Origin: Candidatus Minimicrobia sp. QA0096
GTDB lineage: Bacteria; Patescibacteriota; Saccharimonadia; Saccharimonadales; Saccharimonadaceae
Length of the DNA stretch: 32,000 bases
Direction: 5' to 3'
NCBI RefSeq assembly: GCF_963967315.1
Contig: NZ_OZ017288.1
Span: 450,001 to 482,000, forward strand
Position 1 is the stretch's first letter, and each line of letters begins with the position of its first letter. Under the pieces are notes generated by a model. That model was given only the letters and a program-made list of their open reading frames with translations. It had not been told where the DNA came from and made no database searches. The translations under genes and the position numbers were made by a program. Below are positions 6,198 through 26,750 of the stretch, one piece after another.

Positions 6198-6198
6198 T
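6193..6198 (+). promoter_or_regulatory. -10 box TATAAT, 6 nt upstream of ATG 6205 (leaderless geometry); overlaps the clpB stop codon
   Basis: Plus strand reads cgTATAATagatgcATGgat. Confidence 0.45.
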
Positions 6199-6204
6199 AG
6201 ATGC

Positions 6205-6804
6205 ATGGATCAAATTCGCAGCGAGCAGGAATCCGTCAAATCAGCGCTTTTAGGAGTCGGCAGAATGCTTGGTTTGCCGAAATATTTACTAATAACAATT
6301 GTCGCGACCGTCGCCTTCGCCGTGGTAATTTATTTCGCAATCAACGCCAATTTTTACGGACCGCTGATAATGTCGCGCTTACCAATCCTCGATAAAATCA
6401 CGCTGCTCGGTTCGATGATTATAGACATCTTCAAACAAAGTTTCACTTCACCAAATGGCGCGCTACTTATGGTAGTGTCAATTCTTCAAGGTGTATCGAT
6501 CGCCGCTGTAATTTTTACAGCAAAGAATAATCGCGACAATGAAAAAACTGTATCTCGACAAGTCGGATTAAGCGGAATCGCATCAATTGCCGCAACAATT
6601 GGACTCGGCTGCGTTCCCTGCGGAACATCACTAATCTTACCAATTGTAACCCTATTTTTCTCGGGAGCTGCCGCCGCCACCGCCGCAAATATCGCCAGTA
6701 TAATAGTCCTTTTATTGGCTTTACTACTCAGTTTATTCTCGCTATATAAATCAGGTCAAATTATTTTTATGTACACAGAATTATCTAAACAGGAGAAAAT
6801 ATGA
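6205..6804 (+). CDS. Polytopic membrane protein with a single CxxC (CVPC) motif; unknown family
   Basis: About 4 hydrophobic helices. The only two Cys are in GLGCVPCGTSLILPIV (nt 6610-6621). ATGA overlap with the downstream DsbA-like gene. Start at 6205 chosen from the -10-N6-ATG geometry and the end of clpB. Confidence 0.6.
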   Translation: MDQIRSEQESVKSALLGVGRMLGLPKYLLITIVATVAFAVVIYFAINANFYGPLIMSRLPILDKITLLGSMIIDIFKQSFTSPNGALLMVVSILQGVSIAAVIFTAKNNRDNEKTVSRQVGLSGIASIAATIGLGCVPCGTSLILPIVTLFFSGAAAATAANIASIIVLLLALLLSLFSLYKSGQIIFMYTELSKQEKI

Positions 6805-7517
6805 ATCGACAAAAATCATCAGGCATAGCACTTATTTGGGTTCTTTCGGGAATTGTAATCGTGGGAATTGTAGCTTTGTTTATTTATGGAATTGTCAATC
6901 GTCCGCCGAATCGTCACATTGGCGATAATAAACCATGGAATGAAAAAATGTCACAAGGATCCGCTGACGCGAAAAACGTATTCATTGATTATACTGACTA
7001 TTTTTGTTCATTTTGCGCCGAGGTCGAAGCCGCAACCAGCACAGAATTCTTCAAAAATGACTATATTAAATCCGGAAAAGTTCGTTATGAGCATCGCGTA
7101 GTAACACTATTAAAAGAGATGACCAACAATACAGAAACTGGCGCTCACGCTGCGTTTTGTGCTGCTGATCAAGATAAATATTGGCAGTACACCCACGATA
7201 TCGTCCCGCGCATTAAAAGCGATTATTTCGATAAAGGAATCGGCGTAAAAAACGTTGCTGTGCCGAAAAAAATCCCTGCTCTTCCGCTGGAATATTTCCT
7301 AACTTCCGCCAAAAATGTCGGCATGAATGAATCGCAATTTTCCGACTGTATGACTAAAAAACCGCACCAAAAAGAAATTGACAGCAACACACAAAAAGCC
7401 TTGTCGCTTGGCGTGAACGGCTTGCCGTACATGGTCATTAACGACTATCAAACCAGCGGATTCGTCGGCGGCGAAAACGGATTAATAAGCATTCTTAAAG
7501 CTGGCGGCGTTAAATAA
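6801..7517 (+). CDS. Membrane-anchored DsbA-family thiol:disulfide oxidoreductase
   Basis: N-terminal TM helix IALIWVLSGIVIVGIVALFIYGIV. Thioredoxin-fold active site DYTDYFCSFCAE (CxxC) and C-terminal GVNGLPYMVIND (cis-Pro region). Confidence 0.8.
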   Translation: MNRQKSSGIALIWVLSGIVIVGIVALFIYGIVNRPPNRHIGDNKPWNEKMSQGSADAKNVFIDYTDYFCSFCAEVEAATSTEFFKNDYIKSGKVRYEHRVVTLLKEMTNNTETGAHAAFCAADQDKYWQYTHDIVPRIKSDYFDKGIGVKNVAVPKKIPALPLEYFLTSAKNVGMNESQFSDCMTKKPHQKEIDSNTQKALSLGVNGLPYMVINDYQTSGFVGGENGLISILKAGGVK

Positions 7518-7523
7518 TTGTCA

Positions 7524-8135
7524 CTATTTCAGTTGACTCATAAATCCACGCAATTGAGATAAAGTCCGCTCTATTCTTTCATTAGTCCAATATTTATCTG
7601 GCGTGATATTATCGTCGCCAGTTGATTCCTCTTTGTAGCGGCCGATAATCTTGCCGTTCTTGACAATCGATACATCAGGCGCAAATATTCGAGGATTGCC
7701 ATTTTTATCTTTTTCCAAATACGGTTCTAATTTCTTGACCAATTTTTGATAAACTTCGTTGTTGCTAGCGCGAGCATCGCGAATATTCAAATAGTATATT
7801 TTATCAACACTTTCAGCCCGAGCTGCCCGATCAACGTGTTTGCTCAAATGCTGGCACCACGGACATTGCGGAAAGCCCAAGAAAACCACGCCGCTGCCGT
7901 TATCAAAGATATCAAGGATCTCTTTATCGCTGGCATAAACGAAGCGATTATTCGCCGCCACTCGCGGATATTCTGACTTGAATTTGGCGGCGTCGGACAC
8001 GTTAGTAGACGGAGTCTTCGGCTGCTCGGCAGAATGCTGGCGGTTATACCACAGCCCAGCCGCAGCGCCGCACAAGATGATTATGACGGAAATAATCGCA
8101 ATAAGTTTTTTATTCATACCAAACCTCTTTTTCAT
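7524..8135 (-). CDS. Membrane-anchored thioredoxin-like protein (CPWC active site)
   Basis: N-terminal TM LIAIISVIIILCGAAAGLW and VVFLGFPQCPWCQHL. Resembles extracytoplasmic thioredoxin-fold accessory proteins of Gram-positives. Confidence 0.7.
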   Translation of the reverse strand: MKKRFGMNKKLIAIISVIIILCGAAAGLWYNRQHSAEQPKTPSTNVSDAAKFKSEYPRVAANNRFVYASDKEILDIFDNGSGVVFLGFPQCPWCQHLSKHVDRAARAESVDKIYYLNIRDARASNNEVYQKLVKKLEPYLEKDKNGNPRIFAPDVSIVKNGKIIGRYKEESTGDDNITPDKYWTNERIERTLSQLRGFMSQLK

Positions 8136-8272
8136 AACGTCGTATCCTTCTTATAATTTTTCTTAGCTTCCAGCGACAACGATACCGCCGAACCGCGCGA
8201 ATCATTCGTCTTATCCCACTTCCGCGCGCGAATATGACTCATCACTAGCTCTTGCGCTTCTTCAAATGTCAT
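8132..8272 (-). CDS. 46-aa ORF, possible MazG-like N-terminal remnant or small protein
   Basis: Below the track's size cut-off. Sequence MTFEEAQELVMSHIRARKWDKTNDSRGSAVSLSLEAKKNYKKDTTL. Strong SD (aGAAGGGGGAatt) directly upstream of ATG 8272 and an ATGA overlap with the thioredoxin-like gene. Confidence 0.4.
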   Translation of the reverse strand: MTFEEAQELVMSHIRARKWDKTNDSRGSAVSLSLEAKKNYKKDTTL

Positions 8273-8389
8273 AATTCCCCCTTCTGGTGTAGCTTCACTA
8301 TAGCTGGTCTAATTATAATACAGCGTTAGCATCATGAAAAACGGTAAAAATCGAACAAAATATAAAGGCATTTTTCCAAAACATAAAAG

Positions 8390-8405
8390 CTGTTTTCGAA
8401 AACAG
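8390..8405. other. Perfect 16-bp palindrome in a 279-bp non-coding gap
   Basis: CTGTTTTCGAAAACAG. On the minus strand it is followed by cttttatgtttt, so it could be a weak lysK terminator or a protein-binding site. Confidence 0.3.
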
Positions 8406-8551
8406 AAAGAATGTTTTAAGCGACAGATACGACTATTCGATAAAAAGCAAGCGAAAACAGGCAAACTACCGATATATTTTAATAAAACCGCCAGACGATT
8501 AGAGTTTTGCTCCCCATTTCCACCTGAAAAGCTTAATCACTAGACGAGCTT

Positions 8552-10078
8552 CTACTTGACTAGTCGCAATCGCTCAATCAACCAATCCCGCGGCAAAATC
8601 GATAAGAACCAGCCAGCGCGCGGCCCGGAATCTTTGCCAATGAGCACACGGTAGATGGTGGTGAAAAGCTCCCGCGGCAGCAGCAAACCGCTCTCTTTGT
8701 AGGCGTAAATTGCTTGATGAAACCAGTTACCGTCAGCCCCAGCCGGCGCCTCGGCGATATCGTCAGCTAATCGCCTCAAGTATTCTTTTTGCTCTGGCGA
8801 GAACTCATCGGGATTTACCTCGTCCGTCAGACGAAACTTCAATGACTCGGGCGCCCACTTTTCCAGCCACCGACCAACATAGCCTAGTTCTGTGATGATC
8901 ACTGCTTCTTCTTCGTCGACGATGCGGGCGTATTCCGAACTGCGCCGCAAAATCTCTACTGTTTTTACCATGTCGCACAGCGCCGCTTGGTATGAAATAA
9001 CCAGATGCGAGAATGGAATTGAGCTGACCGCTGGCTGATCTAGTCCGTCAGTACACAAGAATAATAGCTGTTTATCAAGCTCATTTTGCGGATGCTGCTT
9101 CATCGCCGCGAAGTCGTCAACCAGCCGCACCAGGCTATCGGTCTCGTCAAAATACAACCGCTTGGCTGGCGAATATCGAAGGATAAAGTAGCGCACTACC
9201 TCAGGCGGCAGCATATCAACAACGTCGTGTGCATTCACGCCAGTACCCTTGCTGGCGCTCATCTTTTTCGTATCACCGGTGCGATTAATAAATTCATATG
9301 GCACTGGTACTGGCGCATCAATGTCATAGACTTCACGAGCGATCCGTTTGCCGGTATCATACGAACCGCCCTTCGTCGCGTGGTCACGACCAAACGGCTC
9401 GATATCAATACCGAGCAGCCACCACCGCCCCGGCCAATCCAACCGCCAGTCCAGCTTTACCTGCCCGTCATCGTACCGAACCGTGTGCTCCGAGTCATCA
9501 TGGCTACGATAGGTAATTGTTTTTGTATCGCTATCCATTCTGACAAACTGACGATTTTTAAGACGACCATGTTCCATAATCTGAATCGGCGACCATTGAT
9601 TATCCAGCTGCCGACCCGACACTTCCTGGATAGCCAACTTAGCTTTGTCAATGCGGCTCAGTGAGCGCTCGATGGCCGGCACAAAAAATCCGCTCCGATA
9701 TTTATCGCTAGCATAGATCACGTCCATGGTGACGCCAATTTTATCGGCGCTGTCGAGAAATGGCTTCAAGCAAAAATCCGCCCACGAATCGTACCGATCA
9801 TCTGGTGATGGCACCATACAGAGCGGCACACCCAAGTACTGTTCGTAGTTCGCTGGCAAATTAACCGGCACTTTACGAAAGGCGTCGAGGTTGTCTGAAA
9901 CGTGAACGTGGCGCGCCCGAATGCCTGCTTTCTTCAGCGCCCGCACCACGGCATCAGCGATGACAATTTCACGCAGATGACCCACATGATACACACCTGA
10001 CGGCGATGCGCCCGAGGCAACCAAAATATCTTTATTAGCATCCTGAAACGTATTTACTATATCATCGAGCCACTTCAT
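8552..10078 (-). CDS. lysK: Lysine--tRNA ligase, class I (archaeal type)
   Basis: 508 aa. HIGH-type motif SGVYHVGHLRE and KMSKS-type motif KKMSASKGTG, so a class I Rossmann synthetase rather than class II LysRS. Confidence 0.85.
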   Translation of the reverse strand: MKWLDDIVNTFQDANKDILVASGASPSGVYHVGHLREIVIADAVVRALKKAGIRARHVHVSDNLDAFRKVPVNLPANYEQYLGVPLCMVPSPDDRYDSWADFCLKPFLDSADKIGVTMDVIYASDKYRSGFFVPAIERSLSRIDKAKLAIQEVSGRQLDNQWSPIQIMEHGRLKNRQFVRMDSDTKTITYRSHDDSEHTVRYDDGQVKLDWRLDWPGRWWLLGIDIEPFGRDHATKGGSYDTGKRIAREVYDIDAPVPVPYEFINRTGDTKKMSASKGTGVNAHDVVDMLPPEVVRYFILRYSPAKRLYFDETDSLVRLVDDFAAMKQHPQNELDKQLLFLCTDGLDQPAVSSIPFSHLVISYQAALCDMVKTVEILRRSSEYARIVDEEEAVIITELGYVGRWLEKWAPESLKFRLTDEVNPDEFSPEQKEYLRRLADDIAEAPAGADGNWFHQAIYAYKESGLLLPRELFTTIYRVLIGKDSGPRAGWFLSILPRDWLIERLRLVK

Positions 10079-10085
10079 GTGCTAT

Positions 10086-10093
10086 ATTATACA
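10086..10093 (-). promoter_or_regulatory. Extended -10 TGTATAAT, 7 nt upstream of lysK ATG 10078 (leaderless geometry)
   Basis: Minus strand reads gctagTGTATAATatagcacATGaag. Confidence 0.5.
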
Positions 10094-10170
10094 CTAGCTT
10101 GTTACAAAAGAGTTAACGTTGAGCGATCATTCCGGTGATATCATAGACGTAGTCCCATTTTCTACCTATC

Positions 10171-10665
10171 ATGAGAGTCAAAAAAGCAATTAAAGTATTT
10201 GAAAAGATTCGCGACTTACCCTACGGAACAAGTGGCAGTGATGAAGTGTGGTCGTGTTACCAAAAATGCGTACTCTTGAAACAAGAACTGCAGCACATCG
10301 GCATTACCAGTCAATTGCTAATTGGTGTTTTTGACTGGCAAGACCTGCAGATCCCCGAACACATCCTCAAAATTCGCCGCCAACAATATGAGAGACATGT
10401 GATACTACGCGTGTTTATTGATGAATTTGCGTACGATGTCGACCCATCAATAGATATTGGGCTTACACCAATGTTACCTATGGCTTGCTGGGATGGCAAG
10501 TCAAGCACAATAACCATGGTGCCACTGCGACGTCTGCGCGTCTACCGGCCACATTCCTTACATGAGCGTATTTTATCACAACTACGACGTAAGATATTTC
10601 GAAGTAACCCCGAGAGTTTTTATACTGCAATCGACATATGGTTAGCAACCATACGAGTAAGTTGA
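10171..10665 (+). CDS. Small transglutaminase-like (papain-fold Cys-His-Asp) protein, putative
   Basis: 164 aa. The pattern WSCYQKCVLLKQELQHIGITSQLLIG ... RHVILRVFIDEFAYDVDPS matches the Cys ... GIxxR ... H ... D layout of transglutaminase-core proteins. Confidence 0.5.
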   Translation: MRVKKAIKVFEKIRDLPYGTSGSDEVWSCYQKCVLLKQELQHIGITSQLLIGVFDWQDLQIPEHILKIRRQQYERHVILRVFIDEFAYDVDPSIDIGLTPMLPMACWDGKSSTITMVPLRRLRVYRPHSLHERILSQLRRKIFRSNPESFYTAIDIWLATIRVS

Positions 10666-10713
10666 TATTTTTTATTTTAGTGTGCTATATAACAATCTGA
10701 TTGAGACAGTTTA

Positions 10714-11832
10714 TTATTCCCACCTAAATAGCTTAATGGCTAAGAAATAAATAGCGAAAGTCCAAGCCGCGATAATACCGAATTGTGGCAAGATTTCCAT
10801 AAAACTTGCGTGTTCAGTCATAATTAACCGGAATCCATCCGTGATTGGAGTTATGGGGACAAATTGGGCAACGCTTCGCAACCATTCTGGGAATAGATAA
10901 AGCGGGATAAACGTACCGGACAAGAACATCATCGGGAAAGAAATTAAATTACTTAACGCGGAAGATTGGTCTTCGTTTTTCGACCAGCCAGCAATCAATA
11001 GCCCTATTCCCACCATCATGAATGCCGATAATACAGATATAATCACAAACAGCGCCCAATCGCCTCGCATATTAAAGTGAAATATCAAAGCGCCAGCGAC
11101 AACCATCATGATCAAGCTAAGCAAGGAAATAATCGTATAGTGAATTGCTGTAGAGATAATCAACTGACCAGAAGTAAACGGCGCCGCGCGTAAACGTCGG
11201 TACGAGCCACGCTTCTTTTCAGCCGGCATTTGATTAGCTAAACCAAAAATACCCATACTTATCAAGCTGAAAGTTAATAGCCCTGTAAATATGTAATCAA
11301 ACGATTTTAATTGCTCATCACCAATCGCTTTACCAACAGCTTTAAGCGGAGCTTCAGGTTGACCCATCTGAATATTGATGTTATTGGTAATTTGGTTCAT
11401 CACTGCCACCAACGCGCCGCCTGTTTGTTCAGAACCCTTGGAGTAAATAACACTCACAGTGCCTGTTGGAATAGGATGATTGCCATTATTTTTTATCACA
11501 CCAAAATCACTCGGGAGCTCAATAATACCATTGAGCTCTGATCGCTTCAGCTTTTCGCGTGCGTCATCCATATCTTTAACGTCTTTAATTTTGAGGATCG
11601 AATCCTTAGAATTTTCTTTGGCATTTTTAACGAAACTTTTGGCAAATTCCGTCTGCGAATTGTTGACAATTGCAATATTAAAACTGGTCGAATCATTACT
11701 AAAAACCGACCCGAACACTAATAGAAAAATCAGCGGAAAAAGAAAGGTGAAAAATAGCGCCATTTTATCTCGAATAAAACGCTTTTGTTGAGCGCGAACT
11801 TGCCCAAATATTCCAATCCAATATTTTTTCAT
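10714..11832 (-). CDS. ABC-2 type exporter permease
   Basis: 372 aa with an N-terminal TM, a large extracytoplasmic loop, then 5 C-terminal TM helices. Sits 1 nt after the ATPase gene. Confidence 0.8.
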   Translation of the reverse strand: MKKYWIGIFGQVRAQQKRFIRDKMALFFTFLFPLIFLLVFGSVFSNDSTSFNIAIVNNSQTEFAKSFVKNAKENSKDSILKIKDVKDMDDAREKLKRSELNGIIELPSDFGVIKNNGNHPIPTGTVSVIYSKGSEQTGGALVAVMNQITNNINIQMGQPEAPLKAVGKAIGDEQLKSFDYIFTGLLTFSLISMGIFGLANQMPAEKKRGSYRRLRAAPFTSGQLIISTAIHYTIISLLSLIMMVVAGALIFHFNMRGDWALFVIISVLSAFMMVGIGLLIAGWSKNEDQSSALSNLISFPMMFLSGTFIPLYLFPEWLRSVAQFVPITPITDGFRLIMTEHASFMEILPQFGIIAAWTFAIYFLAIKLFRWE

Positions 11833-11833
11833 G

Positions 11834-12595
11834 TTAATCCCGAATTGCCTTTCCTGTTAAATCAATAAACACGTCCTCTAAGTTGGCCTGCTCGACAACC
11901 TGTTCCTTCTTAAAACCACGCGCCAATAATTGTTGGATGAGATTATGTGGCGTATCAATTGTAATAATCTTACCACTGTCCATAATTGCCAGACGATCAC
12001 ACAATAATTCCGCCTCGTCCATATAATGCGTCGTCAAAAGAATCGTAATTCCCTCATCACGAATTTCCTTAATCAAATCCCACAAATTTCTACGCGCCTG
12101 CGGATCAAGCCCCGTAGTCGGCTCGTCCAAAAATAGTACTTTTGGATTATTTACCAGCGTCGAGGCAATCGCAAAACGCTGTTTTTGACCACCAGAAAGC
12201 TGCTCGACGTAATTCTTAGCTTTTTCTGTTAATTGAACCTTAGCAAGCAGCGCCTCAGTATCAACTGTCCGACCATATAAACTACCAAACATTTTCAATT
12301 GTTCACGCAAAGTCAGCTTGTCATAAAAAGCTGTCGACTGAAGCTGAATACCAATTATATTCTTAATATCCTTAGGTTTCTTAGCGACATCTATGCCATC
12401 AATTGTAGCCACACCGCCATCAATTGGTCTGAGCGCTTCCAACATCTCCAACGTTGTTGTTTTGCCCGCGCCGTTAGGGCCAAGAATCCCAAATATCTCG
12501 CCCTTTTTAACTTCAAACGACACGCCGTCGACCACGTTATTTCCATCATAAGTTTTAACAAGTTTATCGACTTTTATAATTGGCTCAAGTTCCAC
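11834..12595 (-). CDS. ABC transporter ATP-binding protein (DrrA/CcmA-like)
   Basis: Walker A GPNGAGKTT, signature LSGGQKQR, Walker B LFLDEPTTGLD and H-loop TTHYMDE. GTG start preceded by gagagga. Confidence 0.9.
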   Translation of the reverse strand: MELEPIIKVDKLVKTYDGNNVVDGVSFEVKKGEIFGILGPNGAGKTTTLEMLEALRPIDGGVATIDGIDVAKKPKDIKNIIGIQLQSTAFYDKLTLREQLKMFGSLYGRTVDTEALLAKVQLTEKAKNYVEQLSGGQKQRFAIASTLVNNPKVLFLDEPTTGLDPQARRNLWDLIKEIRDEGITILLTTHYMDEAELLCDRLAIMDSGKIITIDTPHNLIQQLLARGFKKEQVVEQANLEDVFIDLTGKAIRD

Positions 12596-12674
12596 TCCGC
12601 AAATTCCTCTCTGTTGTAATTTTGATCAAGCTAGTCTCTACTTATCATCAATGATAACAAAACCAAAACACTAG

Positions 12675-12683
12675 TGCTATACT
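12675..12683 (+). promoter_or_regulatory. Extended -10 TGcTATACT, 6 nt upstream of ATG 12690 (leaderless geometry)
   Basis: Plus strand reads agTGcTATACTtatagtATGcgc. Confidence 0.5.
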
Positions 12684-12689
12684 TATAGT

Positions 12690-14126
12690 ATGCGCATTCA
12701 GAGAAAAAAAGCAAAACCAAAATCTAAAAAACTATTTATTATCATACCATTTTTGATTTTGCTATTTTCGGCAGGGCTATTTGGGATATATTTTCTCAAT
12801 CAATCATACTCGCGACAAACGACTGCGCCATCTGACGAAAAGTATTATTTTGCCGATTCGAAATATTCTGGCATTCGCTCAAAATTTGTCACCAGAGATA
12901 ACAAACGAGAAAAAGTTTCAATTGAATATCCGATCACGGAAAATGAAAAGATTAATCGCTTAATTAGCGAGTCGATTGATAAAATTGATCGCGATTTTCA
13001 AAATACGGTTTTACTGGCGACAGTTTTTGATAAGCCAATGACCGAAACAATTGGCTATCAAGTCACGCACAACACTTCAGAAGCGCTGTCAATTGTCATC
13101 AATATTAAGCAGGATATGAACGGCGCACATCCAGCATCAATGACGCAATTTTGGACTTTCGACAAAAAATCTGGCGAAGTTGTCGGCTTAGCTGATTTTA
13201 CAGAACAGTCCGATGAAGCCATCGAAGCAATCATATCCGCTGCCAAAGATAATATTTCTCAGACCATCAAACAACGCCAGCAGCCAGAAATTGACCTGAA
13301 TGAAATCATAAATAAAGAAGCTTTGTCTAATTTCATCATCACTAATAACGGCAATTCATTGGCTTGGCCACTCGGTCAGGCGTCGCTATTACCATCATCT
13401 TACGGCGAATTGACAATTACTGTGCCAATTTCCTCCGTCTCTAAATATCTACAAAACCCAACGGCGAGAAAATTCGCTAACATCCCCAAGCCCGCAGAAA
13501 AACCAAAACCAGCACCTGCAGCTCCAACACCTATCGTCGCAAATAAAACAATTGCTCTAACTTTTGACGACGGACCTGGACCATACACTGAAAAATTATT
13601 GGACATATTAGATAAGTACGACGCCAAGGCGACATTTTTCCTAATTGGAAGTAAAGTTTCAGCACGCGCCAACACGTTACGTCGTATGCAGTCGCGCGGG
13701 CATCAATTAGGCAACCACTCTTGGTCGCATCCAGAGTTAAATAAGATTTCAACAGAGCAACTATCTAGCGAAATTGACCAAACAAATAATGCCATAAAAC
13801 AAGCAGTCGGCATCAATCCCAATATCATACGTCCGCCATACGGCGCGTTTAATCGGGTAGTTTTGGAGAAGTTCCGTCAACGTGGAATGTCGTCTATTCT
13901 ATGGTCTGTCGATACGCGCGACTGGGCTGATCGTAATAGTGAGATAGTCTGTTCAAGGGCTGTCGCTGGCGCTCACAACGGAGCTGTGATTTTAATGCAC
14001 GATATTCATCAGACATCCGTAAATGCCGTTCCTTGCATTCTTGACTCACTCAAACAACAAGGCTATTCATTCGTAACGGTACAAAATTTAATCGGCGATA
14101 TGACACCGGGCGCCGTTTATCCGTAA
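12690..14126 (+). CDS. PdaC-like membrane-anchored peptidoglycan/polysaccharide deacetylase (NodB domain)
   Basis: N-terminal TM LFIIIPFLILLFSAGLFGIYFL, a DUF3298/DUF4163-like middle region and a PKPAEKPKPAPAAP linker. NodB motifs ALTFDDGP, GNHSWSHP, RPPYG and ILMHD. Confidence 0.85.
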   Translation: MRIQRKKAKPKSKKLFIIIPFLILLFSAGLFGIYFLNQSYSRQTTAPSDEKYYFADSKYSGIRSKFVTRDNKREKVSIEYPITENEKINRLISESIDKIDRDFQNTVLLATVFDKPMTETIGYQVTHNTSEALSIVINIKQDMNGAHPASMTQFWTFDKKSGEVVGLADFTEQSDEAIEAIISAAKDNISQTIKQRQQPEIDLNEIINKEALSNFIITNNGNSLAWPLGQASLLPSSYGELTITVPISSVSKYLQNPTARKFANIPKPAEKPKPAPAAPTPIVANKTIALTFDDGPGPYTEKLLDILDKYDAKATFFLIGSKVSARANTLRRMQSRGHQLGNHSWSHPELNKISTEQLSSEIDQTNNAIKQAVGINPNIIRPPYGAFNRVVLEKFRQRGMSSILWSVDTRDWADRNSEIVCSRAVAGAHNGAVILMHDIHQTSVNAVPCILDSLKQQGYSFVTVQNLIGDMTPGAVYP

Positions 14127-14128
14127 AC

Positions 14129-14350
14129 TTAATCAATCTCAAATATCTTATACTTTGAAGTTGCGCCGCGCACTAATTTAACTTTGGACGGCGCAACCTT
14201 AAAATGTTTTGCCAATAATTTAATAGTCGCCGCGTTGGCTCGACCTTCAATTGCTGGGGCTTTGGTATAAACCGTCAACGTTTCGTCGTCATTTTTCACA
14301 ACTTCCTCACGATGGTGAGAGTTTGGTTTAATGTGTACGGAGATTTTCAT
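14129..14350 (-). CDS. DUF167 (YggU) family protein
   Basis: 73 aa. IKPNS ... APAIEGRANAATIKLLAKHFKVAPSKVKLVRGATSKYK is the typical YggU signature. Confidence 0.8.
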   Translation of the reverse strand: MKISVHIKPNSHHREEVVKNDDETLTVYTKAPAIEGRANAATIKLLAKHFKVAPSKVKLVRGATSKYKIFEID

Positions 14351-14405
14351 ACGCCATTAAAAATCTATCACCTTTAATCCCCTAGGTAGAATTTCTCGCA
14401 CAACT

Positions 14406-15971
14406 TTACTTATCATATTTATCCATTATATATATTTCCGTCTCAGGGAGTGATATGACATCATCCAACTCATCAATAATAGTATCATCTATGAAATTAG
14501 CTTTAGATAATTCACAAAATGCTGATGGCTTTAGCCATGCTGAATTCCAAATACCATCAACCATTTCTCCTGTAACTATAGGACTTTCATACAGCATAGA
14601 AATAATCGGGTTACGTGATACAAGCTTACATAAAGGCTCATCAAATTTTCTGCTTCGATCCGATTTAATACTAATGCGCTGCAGACATATATCTAGATAT
14701 CCCACGTTTGGAACATCAGTAAATTTACGCTCAATTTTTCGGTACATATCATCTCGCTCCTTTCTCGTATCAAATGACATCAGCTTCGATATCACAGAAG
14801 CACCAGTTGCATATGTTCGAGGATTATTAAGCATTATATCCACCACAATAGCAACCATTGCGTCGTTTTGATCAGGCTTTTCTTTGAGGTTTTCTATACA
14901 CTTTCGGAAATCCCCGAACAGTCTGCTCACACTTCCCGAATTTTTATGTATTTTTGAGAAGTTCCTTATATAAAACAGCTTATGTTGTAGCCCAAGATTA
15001 TCATATCTATAATTAGATAAAATCAGGCTATTCTTATCAGTCTTAACCGAAGCGTCAATAACATTATCCGCGATTACCGTCTTATTTGGATTCAACTTGA
15101 AATTTAATTCCGCTAATATACTACTCAGCTTTAGGAGAATTTTTTCAGCGTCTTGGCAACTGTTTGTGAAAATTCTATAATCGTCCCGGTATCTAAGTAT
15201 CTTATAATCTTCAATTTTTTCTTTTTTCAGTTGTTTACTCAGTAACATATCTGCAAAGCCAAGGACCATCTCCGCAATCAAATCGGACACCATATTACCC
15301 TGAGGTATGCCGTTTGTCTGCCTGTTATGCATATCTTGTAGAAAATTATCGATACTATTTCCCAACAGTCCATCTTTTTTATCTAATTCGTTATGATTAG
15401 CTTTAGCTATTTTTTTATCATGAAGCGCCCATGCGACAGAATGTGTGTACAAAGACCCATAACAGTCTGTAATATCTGTAGTTGTAAGATATTTGAACTC
15501 TAGTGATAATTTAATTGATGCCTGTTCTATCTCACTCCACCAACGATTTATATTCTCTTCTTTTTCTGTATTTCCTTTGCTCTCATCGGGTTTTTGCGGA
15601 ATGTTTACCGCTATAATCTTGTCGTTACATTGCATCTCTTTGAAGCGCTTCTTAATACAATTCCAATTCTTTTCCTCTGTGAGCAAATTTACTAGCTCGA
15701 TATAAAGAATCGGATGAACAAGCTCATATGGTCGCCAGGCATACGCACCATCTTTGTTAGCAAGTAGCGTGTAGTTTACACCCTCAAAAGCACCTGGTCC
15801 TGACTTCTTGCCACTGTTTCTATAGCCTCCTTTTTGTACTATGTCATCAGCACAGTCTAATAAATTTTGCACATTAAAATAAGCAGGCAAGCCAAAATTG
15901 CAATATGAATTAGGTCGCAGTAATAAATCTCTGGCTTCAGAACACTCTAATTCTAAGATAAGTTTGCCCAT
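14406..15971 (-). CDS. Standalone reverse transcriptase, Abi/UG (defence-associated) class, with uncharacterised C-terminal domain
   Basis: RT motif A TDITDCYGSLYTH, motif B GIPQGNMVSDLIAEMVL, motif C RYRDDYRIF (YRDD encoded at nt 15180-15191) and motif D/E-like LNFKLNPNKT. The track ORF starts at TTG 15989; ATG 15971 (MGKLILE) is the more conservative start. The gene is AT-rich. Confidence 0.85.
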   Translation of the reverse strand: MGKLILELECSEARDLLLRPNSYCNFGLPAYFNVQNLLDCADDIVQKGGYRNSGKKSGPGAFEGVNYTLLANKDGAYAWRPYELVHPILYIELVNLLTEEKNWNCIKKRFKEMQCNDKIIAVNIPQKPDESKGNTEKEENINRWWSEIEQASIKLSLEFKYLTTTDITDCYGSLYTHSVAWALHDKKIAKANHNELDKKDGLLGNSIDNFLQDMHNRQTNGIPQGNMVSDLIAEMVLGFADMLLSKQLKKEKIEDYKILRYRDDYRIFTNSCQDAEKILLKLSSILAELNFKLNPNKTVIADNVIDASVKTDKNSLILSNYRYDNLGLQHKLFYIRNFSKIHKNSGSVSRLFGDFRKCIENLKEKPDQNDAMVAIVVDIMLNNPRTYATGASVISKLMSFDTRKERDDMYRKIERKFTDVPNVGYLDICLQRISIKSDRSRKFDEPLCKLVSRNPIISMLYESPIVTGEMVDGIWNSAWLKPSAFCELSKANFIDDTIIDELDDVISLPETEIYIMDKYDK

Positions 15972-16016
15972 TATTTCGCAATCTTCCAAATAGTATCACC
16001 TGTTGTCATATTAAAC

Positions 16017-16025
16017 ATTATACTA
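16017..16025 (-). promoter_or_regulatory. Candidate RT-specific -10 box (TAGTATAAT)
   Basis: Minus strand reads acaTAGTATAATgttt in the 54-nt gap between the acidic ORF stop and the RT, about 45 nt upstream of ATG 15971. Confidence 0.4.
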
Positions 16026-16042
16026 TGTTCTATGTCCTATTT

Positions 16043-17821
16043 TTATCTTATGATTATCTCCTGTTTTATCGAAGAGATCTTAATAGCCAAAAAACCTAGA
16101 AATTCCACTAAGGGTAAAAGCATATTGACACCATAGCTATTCGAAGCCTTATCATCTTCCGGATTCAGCGGACTATCATCAGCCCAAAACCCCGAATAAG
16201 CACCAGAAATATTTGTACTATTAATGATATTGTTTATATCATCTCCGTCGCAATTATAATTATCTTTTTCCTCCGATGAATTATCTGACGAAACAGGAAT
16301 TTCCTGAGAAACTGGAGTATTTAAATCCTCTTTCAAAACATTATCAATGCCATCACAACAATCGCTCGATTCTTCAATTTTTATAGAGCATTTTACCCCA
16401 TCGCAATCATCCGTAATAACCAATTCGCTACATTCTTCAGCCAATTCAGCTTTTTCCGCGACTTTTTTCACGGCCTCATCGACGATATTATTCCGATCAA
16501 TTGCATCATCGGCTAATTTCAAATCAGGAATAAATTGTCCTATTACTTCAAACCTATTAGTCGGCAATTCTTCCAATTCACACGTAACTTCTTCGCCCAA
16601 TTCTGCACAATCACCCAAATCATCTGCCATATTATCTGTTTCATTCACGACCATACAATTGTCAAAATCTTCGTCCATAGCAATATTCTCTGAATCTTCG
16701 AAACATACTTCACGCTCTTCAAAATCACGTTGTGGTAAAATTGGCGAATCCTCCTTATTTTCTGCCAATTCAGCAGATTCAATTCTTTTACGCACAGCCT
16801 CATCGCTCAACTCCACCTCAGCTGGCGCATTATTATTGTCATTCATCGCCATATCAATTTCATTATTGACTTGAAGAAAATCACGCACAGGCAAGGAATT
16901 TGGCTCATTAGAAATAGCTTTCTCGACCAGATCTTCCCTTGGAGTAGAATCTTCCAAAATCGGTGCAGAGTTTATATTATTTTCATCCCCTACATGGCTA
17001 TCTTCCTTTATAGATAATTCTCTCGGCAATTCATCACCTTTATCAACAGCCGGAGCTTGATTCTCAGAAGATACATCTCCTTTATAAATGTCTGCTTTTT
17101 CATCGATGTCTTCCGAGTCCATCAAGTTAATTTGACTAGCCACCTCAGTCTCCTCCGGCTCTTCGTTGATTTTCGGCGGGATATTTTCTTTGATCATTTT
17201 CGCGCTTGGAATATTTTCCGATGACGCACTTTCGCTATCCAAACATTCATCATCCGTCGGTTTGTTCGCCTCATTATTTTCCGCCGACACGCGTATCGAC
17301 ACATCATCATCGCTCGCTTCCAACTTAACCGCAGGTTTTTCTGATACGGATTCAGTTTTTTCATTTTCTGATGGATTATCTTTTTCAATCGACTCGGACG
17401 CCTTCTCTTCATTATCAACACTGACATATCCAGCAACAACAAAATCACAATCATCATTCATTAAGTCAGACAAATAGCTCTTCGGCTCCTCTGCTGCCGG
17501 CTGTAAATTCTCCTCAGCAAAATTACGCATTCGTAGTATTGAACAAGTTCCCGCCGCAGCACAACTGGCGCACGCCGCGCTGGCTACGTTTTGGCAAATT
17601 TCCGATCGTCTTTCAGCGTCCAAATATTTTTCTGCTGTTTCCGATTCATTTTCTTCGGCAAATGACGTATCAATTTTCTCACCGCTAGCAACCGCTTCTA
17701 CCAAATTTAATTCAGTCGCATCGTCATCAACTTCCGAAGATAAATCCTGAAAATTAACACCACCATTCAACGCTGAAAAAACATCAAAATCACCCGCTCC
17801 ATTTGCCAAACCTTCGTTCAT
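16043..17821 (-). CDS. 592-aa hyper-acidic, Cys-studded protein of unknown family with hydrophobic C-terminal tail
   Basis: Long uninterrupted ORF. Start set at ATG 17821 (MNEGLANG), which forms an ATGA overlap with the upstream reductase stop; the track's 17887 start would overlap that gene by 70 nt. By hand count there are about 150 Asp+Glu, about 45 Lys+Arg and 16 Cys. C-terminus is NMLLPLVEFLGFLAIKISSI. The Ser-rich plus-strand ORFs (16347-16874, 17166-17477) are antisense shadows. Confidence 0.7.
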   Translation of the reverse strand: MNEGLANGAGDFDVFSALNGGVNFQDLSSEVDDDATELNLVEAVASGEKIDTSFAEENESETAEKYLDAERRSEICQNVASAACASCAAAGTCSILRMRNFAEENLQPAAEEPKSYLSDLMNDDCDFVVAGYVSVDNEEKASESIEKDNPSENEKTESVSEKPAVKLEASDDDVSIRVSAENNEANKPTDDECLDSESASSENIPSAKMIKENIPPKINEEPEETEVASQINLMDSEDIDEKADIYKGDVSSENQAPAVDKGDELPRELSIKEDSHVGDENNINSAPILEDSTPREDLVEKAISNEPNSLPVRDFLQVNNEIDMAMNDNNNAPAEVELSDEAVRKRIESAELAENKEDSPILPQRDFEEREVCFEDSENIAMDEDFDNCMVVNETDNMADDLGDCAELGEEVTCELEELPTNRFEVIGQFIPDLKLADDAIDRNNIVDEAVKKVAEKAELAEECSELVITDDCDGVKCSIKIEESSDCCDGIDNVLKEDLNTPVSQEIPVSSDNSSEEKDNYNCDGDDINNIINSTNISGAYSGFWADDSPLNPEDDKASNSYGVNMLLPLVEFLGFLAIKISSIKQEIIIR

Positions 17822-21458: not shown

Positions 21459-22469
21459 TTACATAGATTGCAATAAATCATAAGCAACAGCCGCTGATAA
21501 CGCCTGCATTTGACGAAGATTATCACCCGGCTTGAGCGGTGGTTTGAGGCTACGTGTAAGGAAAAATCCGACAAATGACGCCAACATTTCCGCGTTCAAC
21601 TCACCTAGCCACGATGTTACGTCATGACCATGGCGCGCCATATCAACCAGAAATTCTGTCGCACCAGATCCCTGGGGTACATAGGAAGCCCAGTTCCAGT
21701 CAACCAACTTCAACTCGCCAGTTTGCGGATTAAATGCCAAATTATCACTACGAACATCCGAATGATTAAAGCAATCTTCCGTCTGCTTGGCAAATTCTTT
21801 AGCGCGCACCGAAATATCAATCAACTCATCGCGCTTTTCTAACAGCTCAATTATAGCCTGACAACGCCGCTGATTAATCTCCAACTGATTTGGCAATAGT
21901 TTTTGATAGTTATTAATCAACCGACGACGAATATCAGCGTCAGCAATAATCTGATCAATCCCATCATCTAAGCCAAGCTTTTCCGCCGCAAACGGTTGTA
22001 GTTGTAATTCTTCAATCAACTCTTGTGGCAATTTTATTTTTTCCAACTCGCGAACCGCGGTTATCACCGTCGAAATATAGTGTTCCGCGACAGAGTTATC
22101 CGTCGGAGGTTGCCACAACCACCCATCCGACGAAGCGTAACTACTCGTCATCAACACGTAACCGTCATCAGCCAATTCAGTCCAATCAGCAACATATTGC
22201 GGATAAGTTTTCTGTAACAAACGCGTTACTGCATAATCTTTTTTTAGCCAGCCTAATTCCCGCTCGCCCTCATCCGACAATAAATTAGCATCAACTTCTT
22301 TAACGAAAATTGTTCGACCACCAGACGACACTAACGCTCGGCGATTAAGCGAAAAGCCGCCACTTACTGGCGTGATCCGTAATTCAGATAAATCAACGTT
22401 TAGCTCTGTCGCCGCACATTGCAAGGCTCTGTCGGTTAATAATTTATCGCGATCTGGCAATGTTTCCAT
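21459..22469 (-). CDS. Phosphotransferase of the APH/choline-kinase protein-kinase-like fold, substrate unknown
   Basis: 336 aa. Brenner motif HSDVRSDN (HxDxxxxN) followed by LKLVDWNWA (metal-binding Asp). Confidence 0.7.
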   Translation of the reverse strand: METLPDRDKLLTDRALQCAATELNVDLSELRITPVSGGFSLNRRALVSSGGRTIFVKEVDANLLSDEGERELGWLKKDYAVTRLLQKTYPQYVADWTELADDGYVLMTSSYASSDGWLWQPPTDNSVAEHYISTVITAVRELEKIKLPQELIEELQLQPFAAEKLGLDDGIDQIIADADIRRRLINNYQKLLPNQLEINQRRCQAIIELLEKRDELIDISVRAKEFAKQTEDCFNHSDVRSDNLAFNPQTGELKLVDWNWASYVPQGSGATEFLVDMARHGHDVTSWLGELNAEMLASFVGFFLTRSLKPPLKPGDNLRQMQALSAAVAYDLLQSM

Positions 22470-22590: not shown

Positions 22591-23838
22591 ATGTTAATAA
22601 GAAAACGCTTTTTAAATACAAAAGTTAAAATATTAACTGGAGTAATAGCCGCTGGACTATTCATTAGTGGATCACTACTTACCTTGCCGACTGGACAAGC
22701 TAAGGGTGTCGTCAGCGATGATTATCCATTAAATGATAGTACTCATTGGAACACAGAACCTGTTTGGCGTGATGAGTTTAATGGCACATCGTTAGATAAA
22801 GATTCTTGGAATATATACGGCAGCGGATGGAGCGCTAATAACGTCCAAAGCTGCTACAGTAGGAGCGAAGAGAATGTGAATGTTAAAAACGGCAGTCTAA
22901 ACTTAGTAGGACTATACAAGCCTGGCGCGCGTTGCAAAGGAAATGAAAAAAGCGGCAACTTCACCTCTGGATTCGTAGAAACGAAGGGTAAGAAGTCTTG
23001 GACTTACGGCTACATCGAGGCGCGTATAAAAATGCCAAATAATAAGAGTACTTGGCCTGGTTTTTGGCTGAGTCCTGACAAACCTACATACGGCAGTTGG
23101 CCTCGCAGTGGTGAAATTGACATCGTAGAAACTAAAGGTTCTAACTTAGATTACGCCGCAGCAGACGCTCACTGGGGACTTTCAACATACAATAAAAAAC
23201 ATGCTCAAGGCAAGGATTTGCCAGCTGGATTCAAAGATACCACTCAGTGGCACACTTACGGCGTAAAATGGACTGAAGGAAAATTGGAATATTACATTGA
23301 CGGCGTAAAGTTCCACACTGTCAACGGATTCGATCAGCCAAACGCAGCAAACGCGCCTTATGGTCCGTTTGATCAACCATTCTTCCTGCGTCTTAACTTA
23401 GCAATTGGCGGTGATTACATCGACGGTAAAGGCAGTAAATGGTCAAACGCCTACAATGCCCTAGCTAAATATCCAAAGTCATTCCCAGCAACTATGTCAA
23501 TCGATTATGTTCGCGTATACGAAAGGCGAACAGCTAAGGAAATAAACGTGCCAGATAACAATTTGCGCACTCAACTTAATAAAAAACTGTCGACAGCGCT
23601 TAGCACTAATCGTAAAGACGATCAAAAAATTACTGACGTAGAGTTGGAAAAATTGACAGATCTTAACTTGGATGCAGCTGACGACGCATCAGAAGCAGAA
23701 AAGATTCACGATTTAACAGGCTTAGAGGCAGCTAAAAACCTTAAGACTTTATCTCTTAAGAACAACTCCGTCTTCGACTTAAGAGCGGTTTCTAACATCA
23801 AATCTCTAAAGTCAATAAACCTAACGATTAATCGCTAA
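22591..23838 (+). CDS. Secreted GH16 family beta-glucanase (laminarinase/lichenase-like) with truncated LRR tail, no anchor
   Basis: Signal peptide. GH16 catalytic motif GEIDIVE (ExDxxE), WPGFWL and FFLRLNLAIGG. The C-terminus has an LRR cap and about 2 repeats, then a stop (LTINR*). Confidence 0.85.
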   Translation: MLIRKRFLNTKVKILTGVIAAGLFISGSLLTLPTGQAKGVVSDDYPLNDSTHWNTEPVWRDEFNGTSLDKDSWNIYGSGWSANNVQSCYSRSEENVNVKNGSLNLVGLYKPGARCKGNEKSGNFTSGFVETKGKKSWTYGYIEARIKMPNNKSTWPGFWLSPDKPTYGSWPRSGEIDIVETKGSNLDYAAADAHWGLSTYNKKHAQGKDLPAGFKDTTQWHTYGVKWTEGKLEYYIDGVKFHTVNGFDQPNAANAPYGPFDQPFFLRLNLAIGGDYIDGKGSKWSNAYNALAKYPKSFPATMSIDYVRVYERRTAKEINVPDNNLRTQLNKKLSTALSTNRKDDQKITDVELEKLTDLNLDAADDASEAEKIHDLTGLEAAKNLKTLSLKNNSVFDLRAVSNIKSLKSINLTINR

Positions 23839-23859
23839 TTAGCTTAGGCGTTTACAGGA

Positions 23860-23893
23860 AAATTGTCATCTCATTACGGGGTGGCAATTTTTT
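23860..23893 (+). terminator. Weak rho-independent terminator after GH16 paralog 1
   Basis: AAATTGTCA (23860-23868) pairs with TGGCAATTT (23882-23890, one G-U pair), followed by a T-run. Confidence 0.5.
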
Positions 23894-23981
23894 ATTTCAG
23901 CTTAAAACCTCAGCATTCAGCGTTTTCACAGCTCTGTTGTTAAAATAACTACATAATATTCTTTACTTTTATTCCGCTTAT

Positions 23982-23990
23982 TGTTACACT
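23982..23990 (+). promoter_or_regulatory. Extended -10 TGtTACACT of GH16 paralog 2
   Basis: TTTTATTCCGCTTATTGTTACACT is the duplicated promoter module; SD tGGGAGaa precedes ATG 24027. Confidence 0.45.
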
Positions 23991-24026
23991 AGCGATGGAT
24001 AAAAAATATTTGGGAGAAAACAAAAA

Positions 24027-26675: not shown

Positions 26676-26750
26676 TGGCTCCGGGGGCGGGGTTCGAACC
26701 CGCGGCCTATTGGTTAACAGCCAACCGCTCTACCGCTGAGCTACCCCGGA
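26676..26750 (-). tRNA. tRNA-Asn (anticodon GTT), CCA encoded
   Basis: Minus strand TCCGGGGTAGCTCAGCGGTAGAGCGGTTGGCTGTTAACCAATAGGCCGCGGGTTCGAACCCCGCCCCCGGAGCCA. Acceptor stem TCCGGGG/CCCCGGA, anticodon loop CT-GTT-AA, T-loop GGTTCGAACC. Confidence 0.93.

Follow-up and report, generated by a model that had tools for sequence, protein, structure and literature searches.

Closest described systems

To our knowledge, few defence polymerases have both a solved structure and a defined priming mechanism. Abi-P2 is one of them, but how its DNA synthesis stops phages is still unknown. It is encoded by P2-like prophages of Escherichia coli (P2-EC30 and P2-EC58; crystal structure 7R08; Figiel et al. 2022, PMC9508834). 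The protein is a trimer, which may form a hexamer, and synthesises DNA without a template; the substitution Y61F kills this synthesis and Y46F does not (PMC9508834). In one classification, AbiP2 is a class 1 system that stands alone and occurs in P2 prophages and on plasmids (10.1101/2021.12.02.470933). Here we describe a relative in Candidatus Minimicrobia sp. QA0096, an episymbiotic Saccharibacterium whose genome is about 0.7 Mb in size (the longest contig with the identical protein P0001 is 689 kb). The analysed DNA, called the window, is a stretch of 32,000 nucleotides (contig NZ_OZ017288.1, positions 450,001 to 482,000), which carries on its minus strand a reverse transcriptase (RT) gene for an Abi-P2-family polymerase of 521 amino acids (14406..15971). 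It is likely that this gene encodes a functional abortive-infection polymerase of the Abi-P2 family (class 1 UG/Abi).

The window RT has the same architecture as Abi-P2 throughout. The two have in common the thumbless fingers/palm lobe, the LPAY tyrosine, the motifs TDIxDCY and RYRDDYRIF and the helical lobe, and both are single genes without a noncoding RNA. They differ in their setting. The host of the window RT is a Saccharibacterium of about 0.7 Mb and not an enterobacterial prophage, and the gene lies in a chromosomal defence hotspot derived from a type I restriction-modification (R-M) operon and not in the P2 hypervariable region.

AbiK of Lactococcus lactis (7R06/7R07) and AbiA are also class 1 UG/Abi polymerases, whose synthesis is protein-primed and template-independent and whose C-terminal domain is helical. 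Their RT lobes are recognisably related to that of the window RT, but Abi-P2 is by far the better match, the helical domains share no sequence homology, and the HEPN domain of AbiA is absent from the window RT. The single-gene defence RTs DRT6, UG14 and DRT4 (UG15) gave the next-best profiles and structures, with scores three- to fourfold below AbiP2. DRT4 is also reported to make template-independent single-stranded DNA (ssDNA) (PMC12783706). The prr locus of E. coli (hsdM-hsdS-prrC-hsdR, EcoprrI) is similar in another respect, as relatives of the window RT hold the same kind of position within an operon. That likeness is one of genome architecture only: the window RT has no R-M genes, and coupling between Abi-P2 and Hsd is neither known nor shown.

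Gene call and composition

The mechanically called open reading frame (ORF) starts from TTG (14406..15989, minus strand, 527 aa). Judged by homology, the true start is the ATG at 15971, since P0001 and all homologues begin with MGKLILEL there. The two versions are offset by six residues (Tyr37 of the 527-aa form is Tyr31 of the 521-aa protein), and residue numbers below are those of the 521-aa protein unless stated otherwise. The TAA stop (14406-14408) is included in the gene range. P0001 is named 'RNA-directed DNA polymerase [Candidatus Minimicrobia sp. QA0096]'; an NCBI annotation of the gene already exists, and standard defence finders such as PADLOC recognise it.

The RT gene is separated by 55 nt from the downstream DUF167 gene and by 71 nt from the upstream gene (53 nt counted from the TTG); the original prediction, which was made by a model from the letters alone, had given 54-55 nt. 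An Rfam scan of the whole window found one tRNA (26679-26750) and no RNA family near the RT gene, in agreement with the earlier claim that neither a group II ribozyme nor a retron RNA fits in these short flanks. As in a stand-alone system, the neighbours, DUF167 and an acidic protein, had no defence-profile match; the caveat is that close relatives of the RT are embedded in type I R-M operons.

The RT gene had the lowest G+C and the lowest third-position G+C (GC3) of the 25 window genes. Its G+C was 36.1% (gene mean 42.8%, standard deviation 2.8, z = -2.4) and its GC3 was 32.8% (z = -1.7). The AT-richness noticed before was therefore real but far more modest than the earlier hand counts of 27-35% against 40-57%. 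A 138-aa ORF rich in Ser and Ile lies antisense to the RT gene (14455-14871, plus strand). Most likely it is no gene and results from the AT-richness of the coding strand.

Assignment to the Abi-P2 family

The PADLOC AbiP2 profile matched the RT with 579 bits (E 2e-174), protein residues 9-522 aligning to positions 5-485 of the 489 in the profile. The runner-up PADLOC profiles were RT_UG14 and Drt6 (168 bits each) and Drt4 (UG15; 151 bits), and AbiK reached 101 bits. The NCBIfam equivalogs Drt4 (125 bits, cut-off 450), Drt3b (112, cut-off 350), Drt5 (37, cut-off 550), Drt2 (26, cut-off 390) and AbiA (34, cut-off 250) all remained below their cut-offs, and the general Pfam model RVT_1 scored 46 bits against a cut-off of 29.6. 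A phmmer search of the Protein Data Bank retrieved the Abi-P2 crystal structure 7R08 with E 2e-73 (query 6-518 on chain 30-538). By tblastn, the Abi-P2 proteins of P2-EC58 and P2-EC30 were 33% identical over 99% of the length.

An AlphaFold2 monomer model was built from a 45-sequence alignment. The model had a mean predicted local distance difference test score (pLDDT) of 90.3 and a predicted template modelling (TM) score of 0.90, with helices at 304-451. When it was used as a Foldseek query, the top six matches were all six chains of 7R08, with TM scores of 0.80-0.82 (query) and 0.87 (target), and superposition on 7R08 gave a root mean square deviation of about 3-4 Å over about 530 columns. 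Lower matches were DRT6 (9wy8; TM 0.59), DRT4 (0.58) and AbiK (about 0.5), the DRT6, DRT4, UG15, AbiK and AbiA structures together spanning 0.36-0.6. Group II, retron and diversity-generating retroelement (DGR) RT structures scored about 0.3 (retron and DGR 0.28-0.33).

The predicted fold is bilobal as in Abi-P2, with a thumbless RT-like lobe and a C-terminal alpha-helical (alphaRep/HEAT-like) lobe. In the model and the 7R08 superposition the latter corresponds to a mostly alpha-helical domain of about residues 300-521 (14409..15074, minus strand). About 220 aa follow the polymerase core, as had been noted; they had been regarded as a private, unrecognised domain, and are assigned here to the Abi-P2 helical/alphaRep lobe because the 7R08 chains rank first in Foldseek. 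This domain is the most divergent segment of the RT in comparison with sister alleles. By profile and sequence, the RT is a full-length Abi-P2 (class 1 UG/Abi) polymerase. It is an additional, well-conserved member of an already characterised family, and the understanding of Abi-P2 is unchanged by it.

Conserved motifs and functional residues

Conservation was examined in the alignment of 45 homologues, which were 39-86% identical to the query. Motif A, TDITDCYGSLYTH (15441..15479, minus strand; aa 171-183 in the 527-aa numbering), contains the catalytic Asp166 as well as Asp169, and D166, D169, C170, Y171, Y175, T176 and H177 were invariant. Motif B, GIPQGNMVSDLIAEMVL (15261..15311, minus strand; aa 227-243 in the 527-aa numbering), is preceded by QTN; in this region Q218, T219, N220, G221, P223, Q224 and G225 (QTNGxPQG) were invariant. 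Motif C, RYRDDYRIF (15168..15194, minus strand; aa 266-274 in the 527-aa numbering), holds the catalytic Asp263 and Asp264, and R260, R262, D263, D264, Y265, R266 and F268 were invariant. In LNFKLNPNKT (295-304 in the 527-aa numbering), K297 and T298 of the 521-aa protein were invariant. The motif strings and positions reported before were exact in the 527-aa numbering. The YRDD box had been singled out as uncommon; however, Arg262 is a signature of the Abi-P2 family, since it was invariant in all 45 homologues and 7R08 carries the same RYRDDYRIF.

The motif LPAY contains the predicted protein-priming tyrosine, Tyr31 (codon 15879..15881, minus strand; Tyr37 in the 527-aa numbering). In the alignment with 7R08 it pairs with Tyr61 (ELPAY), and P29 and Y31 were invariant among the homologues. 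Judged by these alignments, the priming tyrosine and the catalytic aspartates are conserved in the RT.

Selection and mosaic divergence

Nonsynonymous and synonymous divergence (dN and dS) were estimated by the Nei-Gojobori method, and RT lineages were obtained by neighbour-joining. The dN/dS of the RT was 0.11-0.15 overall, at dS 0.6-0.8. It was 0.05-0.07 for the palm and 0.10-0.25 for the helical and C-terminal parts, so the RT is under purifying selection in every segment.

The divergence of the RT was decoupled from that of its flanks. Compared with the alleles of three sister-species loci (L010, L020 and L022), the RT had dS 0.73-0.83, against 0.13-0.40 for the flanking genes in the same genome pairs. 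Against the more distant locus L085 the pattern was reversed: the flanks had dS from 1.1 to saturated, and the RT had dS 0.64. Three roughly equidistant RT lineages were found, at 0.80-0.85 nucleotide identity: a clade embedded in R-M operons, a clade without R-M genes (orphan clade A), and the window allele. Codons 421-521 (14409-14711, minus strand) had dS 0.43-0.58 to the embedded alleles and 1.5-1.7 to orphan clade A. The C-terminus being closer to the embedded than to the orphan alleles, the gene is mosaic, which implies recombination among RT alleles. Orphan clade A shares the deletion junctions of the window, described below. We infer that the RT alleles predate the species in which they now occur, and that recombination through the conserved flanks has moved or converted them.

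R-M-embedded relatives and the wider family

An RT of 83% identity (P0008) was found in a more distant Saccharibacterium in the same slot. It lies there in an island (4595-15523 of the metagenome contig L085) with the order radC - hsdM - rhuM - orf32 - RT - hsdS - prrC - hsdR - HTH (helix-turn-helix regulator), whose type I operon embeds three defence genes, namely RhuM/PDC-S05, the Abi-P2 RT and a homologue of the anticodon nuclease PrrC (308 bits). RT alleles of 84-86% identity (L091, L092 and L095) lie between hsdM and hsdS, where start and stop codons overlap, and a relative of 47% identity (L088/L089) is placed likewise.

In the metagenomic Abi-P2 loci (L090-L169), a type I hsd gene stood beside the RT in 27 of 80, and in 9 of the 23 loci with at least 3 kb on each side; these counts are a lower bound because the Hsd queries were Saccharibacterial only. 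The common orders were hsdM-hsdS-RT-hsdR, in many non-Saccharibacterial loci, and hsdM-RT-hsdS-hsdR in Saccharibacteria. Association with type I R-M operons is a recognised signature of defence genes (10.1101/2021.12.02.470933).

Alleles of at least 82% identity are widespread in Saccharibacteria; they fall into 90%-identity clusters of 39 and 184 sequences, in which Nanosynbacter TM7-008 and Nanogingivalaceae are represented. A search of the viral contigs in IMG/VR found no close relative of the window RT, and among GenBank phages only Abi-P2 genes of about 30-33% identity matched (P2 and Listeria phage). Transfer from actinobacterial hosts was considered and found no support, the Corynebacterium and Actinomyces sequences being 43-44% identical and the proteobacterial ones 41-42%. 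A limited literature search found no account of Abi-P2 or DRT in Saccharibacteria, which is absence of evidence only.

Flanking remnants of an R-M operon

The RT gene is bordered on both sides by gene fossils. On the 5' side lies a remnant of the start of a type I hsdM gene (15971..16022, minus strand), consisting of a TATAAT box (16017-16022) and a relic ORF, MFNMTTGDTIWKIAK with its stop (15971-16018). The 52 nt upstream of the RT ATG read TATAAT-G-TTTAAT-ATGACAACAGGTGAT|ACTATTTGGAAGATTGC-GAAATAATG. The relic was identified by comparison with the intact hsdM of L008 (MFNMTTGDNRKEQERTKLHNTIWKIANELRG) and L085: its 15 codons comprise hsdM codons 1-8 (MFNMTTGD) and, after an in-frame deletion of 12 codons, the next six (TIWKIA), followed by one junction codon (K). 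Its TAA overlaps the RT start (TAATG). The same hsdM deletion junction was found in L010, L020, L022, L093 and L094.

On the 3' side, 14357..14404 (minus strand) holds the last 15 codons and stop of a 200-aa gene (orf200), VVREILPRGLKVIDF, matching EVREILPRELEVIDF with its stop in L011. Homology to RT-less alleles breaks at 14397-14401 on this side. Both junctions were identical in the orphan alleles L010, L020, L022, L093 and L094, so a single ancestral pair of deletions made the orphan arrangement. The whole segment unlike the RT-less alleles (14402..16139) comprises the RT cassette and the last ~32 codons of the upstream acidic-protein gene (16043-16139); its borders were set from blastn break points against L011, L016, L023 and L084. 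Read from these relics and from the embedded relatives, the window RT is all that two deletions have left of an hsdM-RT-hsdS-(prrC)-hsdR island.

The fossil hsdM start has the form TATAAT-N7-ATG, 38-51 nt upstream of the RT ATG. From its sequence, the fossil leaderless hsdM promoter with its leader likely drives the RT. The absence of a -10-N6-ATG arrangement at the RT start, reported before, is literally true, but this inherited promoter had been missed.

A variable slot for defence genes

The adjacent polysaccharide deacetylase was used as a probe, which retrieved 80 Saccharibacteria species representatives, and neighbouring genes were mapped by tblastn and blastn. The flanks were well conserved in sister species, with identities of at least 93% for the deacetylase and 98-100% for the ABC ATPase, the oxidoreductase and NrdG. 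The DUF167 gene adjoins the deacetylase gene in most of the compared loci, and in six a few kb are inserted between them. The window-type RT was present in three of 25 sister-species loci (L010, L020 and L022), at the same position, and the remaining loci lacked it. It is also carried by four metagenome contigs that are identical to the window.

In 19 of the 25 sister loci the slot holds orf200 (11668-12270, minus strand, in L011). It is the sole occupant in L011, L014, L016 and L023, is accompanied by a complete type I R-M system in L008 (L018 shows only an hsdR fragment at a contig end), and by a type III R-M system (Res and Mod) in L015, L017, L019, L024 and L079. The slot of L015 has in addition a PDC-S13 gene and a truncated DrmD/SNF2-like helicase. 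Neither orf200 nor a 245-aa ORF of the L008 R-M operon had a Pfam or PADLOC match. In the complete genome of Ca. Minimicrobia vallesae IHU2 (L073), the slot contains a type I R-M system and a second Abi-P2 gene, 37% identical (16181-17733, minus strand), beside hsdS, a PDC-S20 gene and hsdR. This second gene is split into ORFs of 166 and 316 aa and is probably a pseudogene, since the motif A region (profile about 134-193) is missing.

Across sister species, the slot is thus occupied by type I or type III R-M systems, PrrC, RhuM, DrmD-like genes and a second Abi-P2. Bounded by DUF167 and the acidic-protein gene, it is a defence hotspot, in which the RT is a presence/absence polymorphism. The proposal that the RT was acquired holds for this reason: the locus is a true indel. 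It is not a simple single-gene insert, as the RT replaces orf200 and is the residue of a type I R-M island with relics on both sides.

Weighing of the functional reading

The reading of the window RT as a functional Abi-P2 is carried by its family membership and residues, the predicted fold, purifying selection, presence/absence at the locus, the fossil flanks and the R-M-embedded relatives. Several points weigh against it. The only demonstration of defence by Abi-P2 is in E. coli, against T5 (cited in 10.1101/2021.12.02.470933). The window RT has lost the R-M genes of its closest embedded relatives and, if it needed them, might be inert. The split gene in L073 shows that such genes do decay in this lineage. 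As for expression, the promoter call is based on a consensus -10 box and homology to hsdM starts; a generic sigma-70 promoter scan gave no more sites than shuffled sequence. A TGA shortens the upstream relic ORF in L022 and L093, so the TAATG coupling is not conserved.

The most serious alternative is that in this branch of the family the RT serves a type I R-M complex as an accessory, kept latent by Hsd proteins or activated through them in the manner of PrrC in EcoprrI. The window copy would then be non-functional, regulated differently, or served by an hsd system elsewhere in the genome. The closest embedded relatives, lying between hsdM and hsdS with overlapping codons (L085/L086, L088/L089, L091, L092 and L095), favour it, as do the hsd genes beside 27 of 80 loci (9 of 23), with the RT often between hsdS and hsdR, the position of PrrC; PrrC itself is present in the L085 island, and the window retains the hsdM promoter and first codons. 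However, the founding Abi-P2 proteins of P2 prophages function from one gene alone, AbiP2 is classed as stand-alone, and most sampled loci of the family have no hsd neighbour. Defence genes commonly embed in R-M operons, and functional coupling is not implied by that alone. At least two deeply diverged orphan lineages keep the arrangement at dN/dS of about 0.1, which is hard to square with lost function. We regard this explanation as distinctly unlikely.

A broader version concerns the family as a whole. The Abi-P2 proteins of Saccharibacteria and of about one third of the wider family would not be autonomous but modules of type I R-M operons, a second line which fires when the R-M complex is disabled, like PrrC. 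The window RT would be an orphan on a captured hsdM promoter, belonging to an ancient allele lineage exchanged among species via the flanks. Within this version, such exchange would account for the mosaic C-terminus, for the common deletion junctions and for an RT dS three to four times as high as in the flanks. It is a speculative proposal with a small chance of being right, though a somewhat better one than the preceding explanation.

That the RT is instead a non-functional leftover of a degraded defence island, heading for loss in a reduced genome, is very unlikely. Gene fossils on both sides, deleted R-M partners, absence of the RT from most sister species, the split Abi-P2 in the L073 slot and the lowest G+C in the window would all fit such decay. 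Yet the ORF of 521 codons is intact with all invariant family residues, dN/dS is 0.11-0.15 at dS 0.6-0.8, and the orphan architecture is intact across alleles differing by about 17% in nucleotides.

A role other than against phages, for example interference with host-derived or competing mobile DNA, or in the interaction of symbiont and host, is scarcely probable. No phage of the lineage is known, and a host prophage has only recently been shown to bind a Saccharibacterium (PMC13578794); the RT also adjoins the gene of a fast-evolving, acidic, probably surface-associated protein. Relatives, however, fill the slot with canonical anti-phage systems, every characterised family member is a defence protein, and there is no positive evidence for another role.

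The chance that the gene belongs to a retroelement (group II intron, retron or DGR) is negligible, since the generic RVT_1 match and a weak similarity to the group II RT model stand against a TIGR04416 score of 54 bits (cut-off 300), the lack of a maturase or endonuclease domain, the lack of any intron, retron or other Rfam RNA, less than 75 nt of noncoding flank (55 and 71 nt) and TM scores of 0.3 for retron, DGR and group II structures against 0.8 for Abi-P2. For retrons and DGRs, the Rfam scan and the short flanks gave no evidence of msr/msd or repeats, no dedicated repeat search having been run. The outcomes that had been named as contrary to a defence RT, namely a group II, retron or DGR assignment with a cognate RNA and presence of the gene in all relatives, did not occur, as the group II score was 54 bits (cut-off 300), no cognate RNA was found and the RT is absent from most sister genomes. 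The original prediction, of a recently acquired stand-alone defence RT of the Abi/UG class for which AbiA, AbiK and Abi-P2 were named as the architecture, is supported, with the amendments that the RT is Abi-P2 specifically, that YRDD is normal for it, that it is an island residue and that the composition bias is modest.

Proposed mode of action

For a functional Abi-P2 in QA0096, enzymatic activity, oligomeric state and anti-phage role would follow those of the E. coli protein. The RT would be transcribed together with DUF167, from the fossil leaderless hsdM promoter, the presumed transcription start, and/or by transcription running on from the upstream operon. By homology the protein would assemble as a trimer, possibly a hexamer. 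The hydroxyl of its own Tyr31 would serve as primer, and ssDNA would be polymerised without template or partner RNA, the product remaining covalently attached. The nascent ssDNA would pass between the RT-like and the C-terminal helical lobes. Its synthesis would be coupled to the arrest of phage infection by a step not yet understood for any Abi-P2.

Ultrasmall, host-dependent Saccharibacteria, whose genomes are about 0.7 Mb in size, thus possess an intact and selectively maintained Abi-P2. That the RT was kept after the R-M island had been deleted argues for real pressure from phages or mobile genetic elements on episymbionts. The window RT offers a naturally minimal, partner-free allele for biochemical work, and the slot between DUF167 and the acidic-protein gene could mark defence-gene turnover and recombination in oral and gut Saccharibacteria. 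The interest of the locus is modest and rests on the lineage, the clean fossil record of island decay and the decoupled, mosaic evolution.

Neighbouring genes and other features of the window

The gene downstream of the RT encodes a DUF167/YggU protein (14129..14350, minus strand; Pfam DUF167, 73.6 bits) and forms the conserved right border of the variable slot. It is probably co-transcribed with the RT. A consensus scan found no terminator-like site between the acidic-protein gene, the RT and DUF167. The same scan placed a terminator-like hairpin with a T-run 3' of DUF167 (14093..14108, minus strand), which likely ends the RT-DUF167 transcript, although the number of such sites was not above that in shuffled sequence.

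The upstream neighbour (16043-17821, minus strand) encodes a very acidic, low-complexity protein of 592 aa with a Cys-rich N-terminal patch (CQNVASAACASCAAAGTC) and a hydrophobic C-terminal tail. Its start overlaps the stop of an FAD/NAD oxidoreductase gene, itself downstream of nrdD-nrdG. The RT had been placed between a ribonucleotide reductase operon and DUF167; the latter border was correct, but the direct upstream neighbour is the acidic-protein gene. No Pfam, PADLOC or NCBIfam match was found for this protein. It evolves fast (58-81% amino acid identity, dN/dS 0.34-0.6), whereas its neighbours are 98% identical. Its last ~32 codons occur in two versions which track the slot allele, the tail of L011 being unlike those of the window and L008. 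The acidic protein was considered as a partner or effector of the RT and rejected, as it has no family match and is also found in RT-less genomes, which places it outside the RT system.

A TATAAT or TATACT box 6-7 nt before the ATG was seen at lysK, the deacetylase gene and the genes at 21459-22469 and 27159-28556, the starts concerned being 10078 (minus strand), 12690 (plus), 22469 (minus) and 27159 (plus). This TATAAT/TATACT-N6/7-ATG arrangement is consistent with leaderless transcripts for these native genes. Two adjacent glycoside hydrolase family 16 proteins are encoded at 22591-25793 (plus strand), the second with leucine-rich repeats, and these may be surface or host-interaction proteins.

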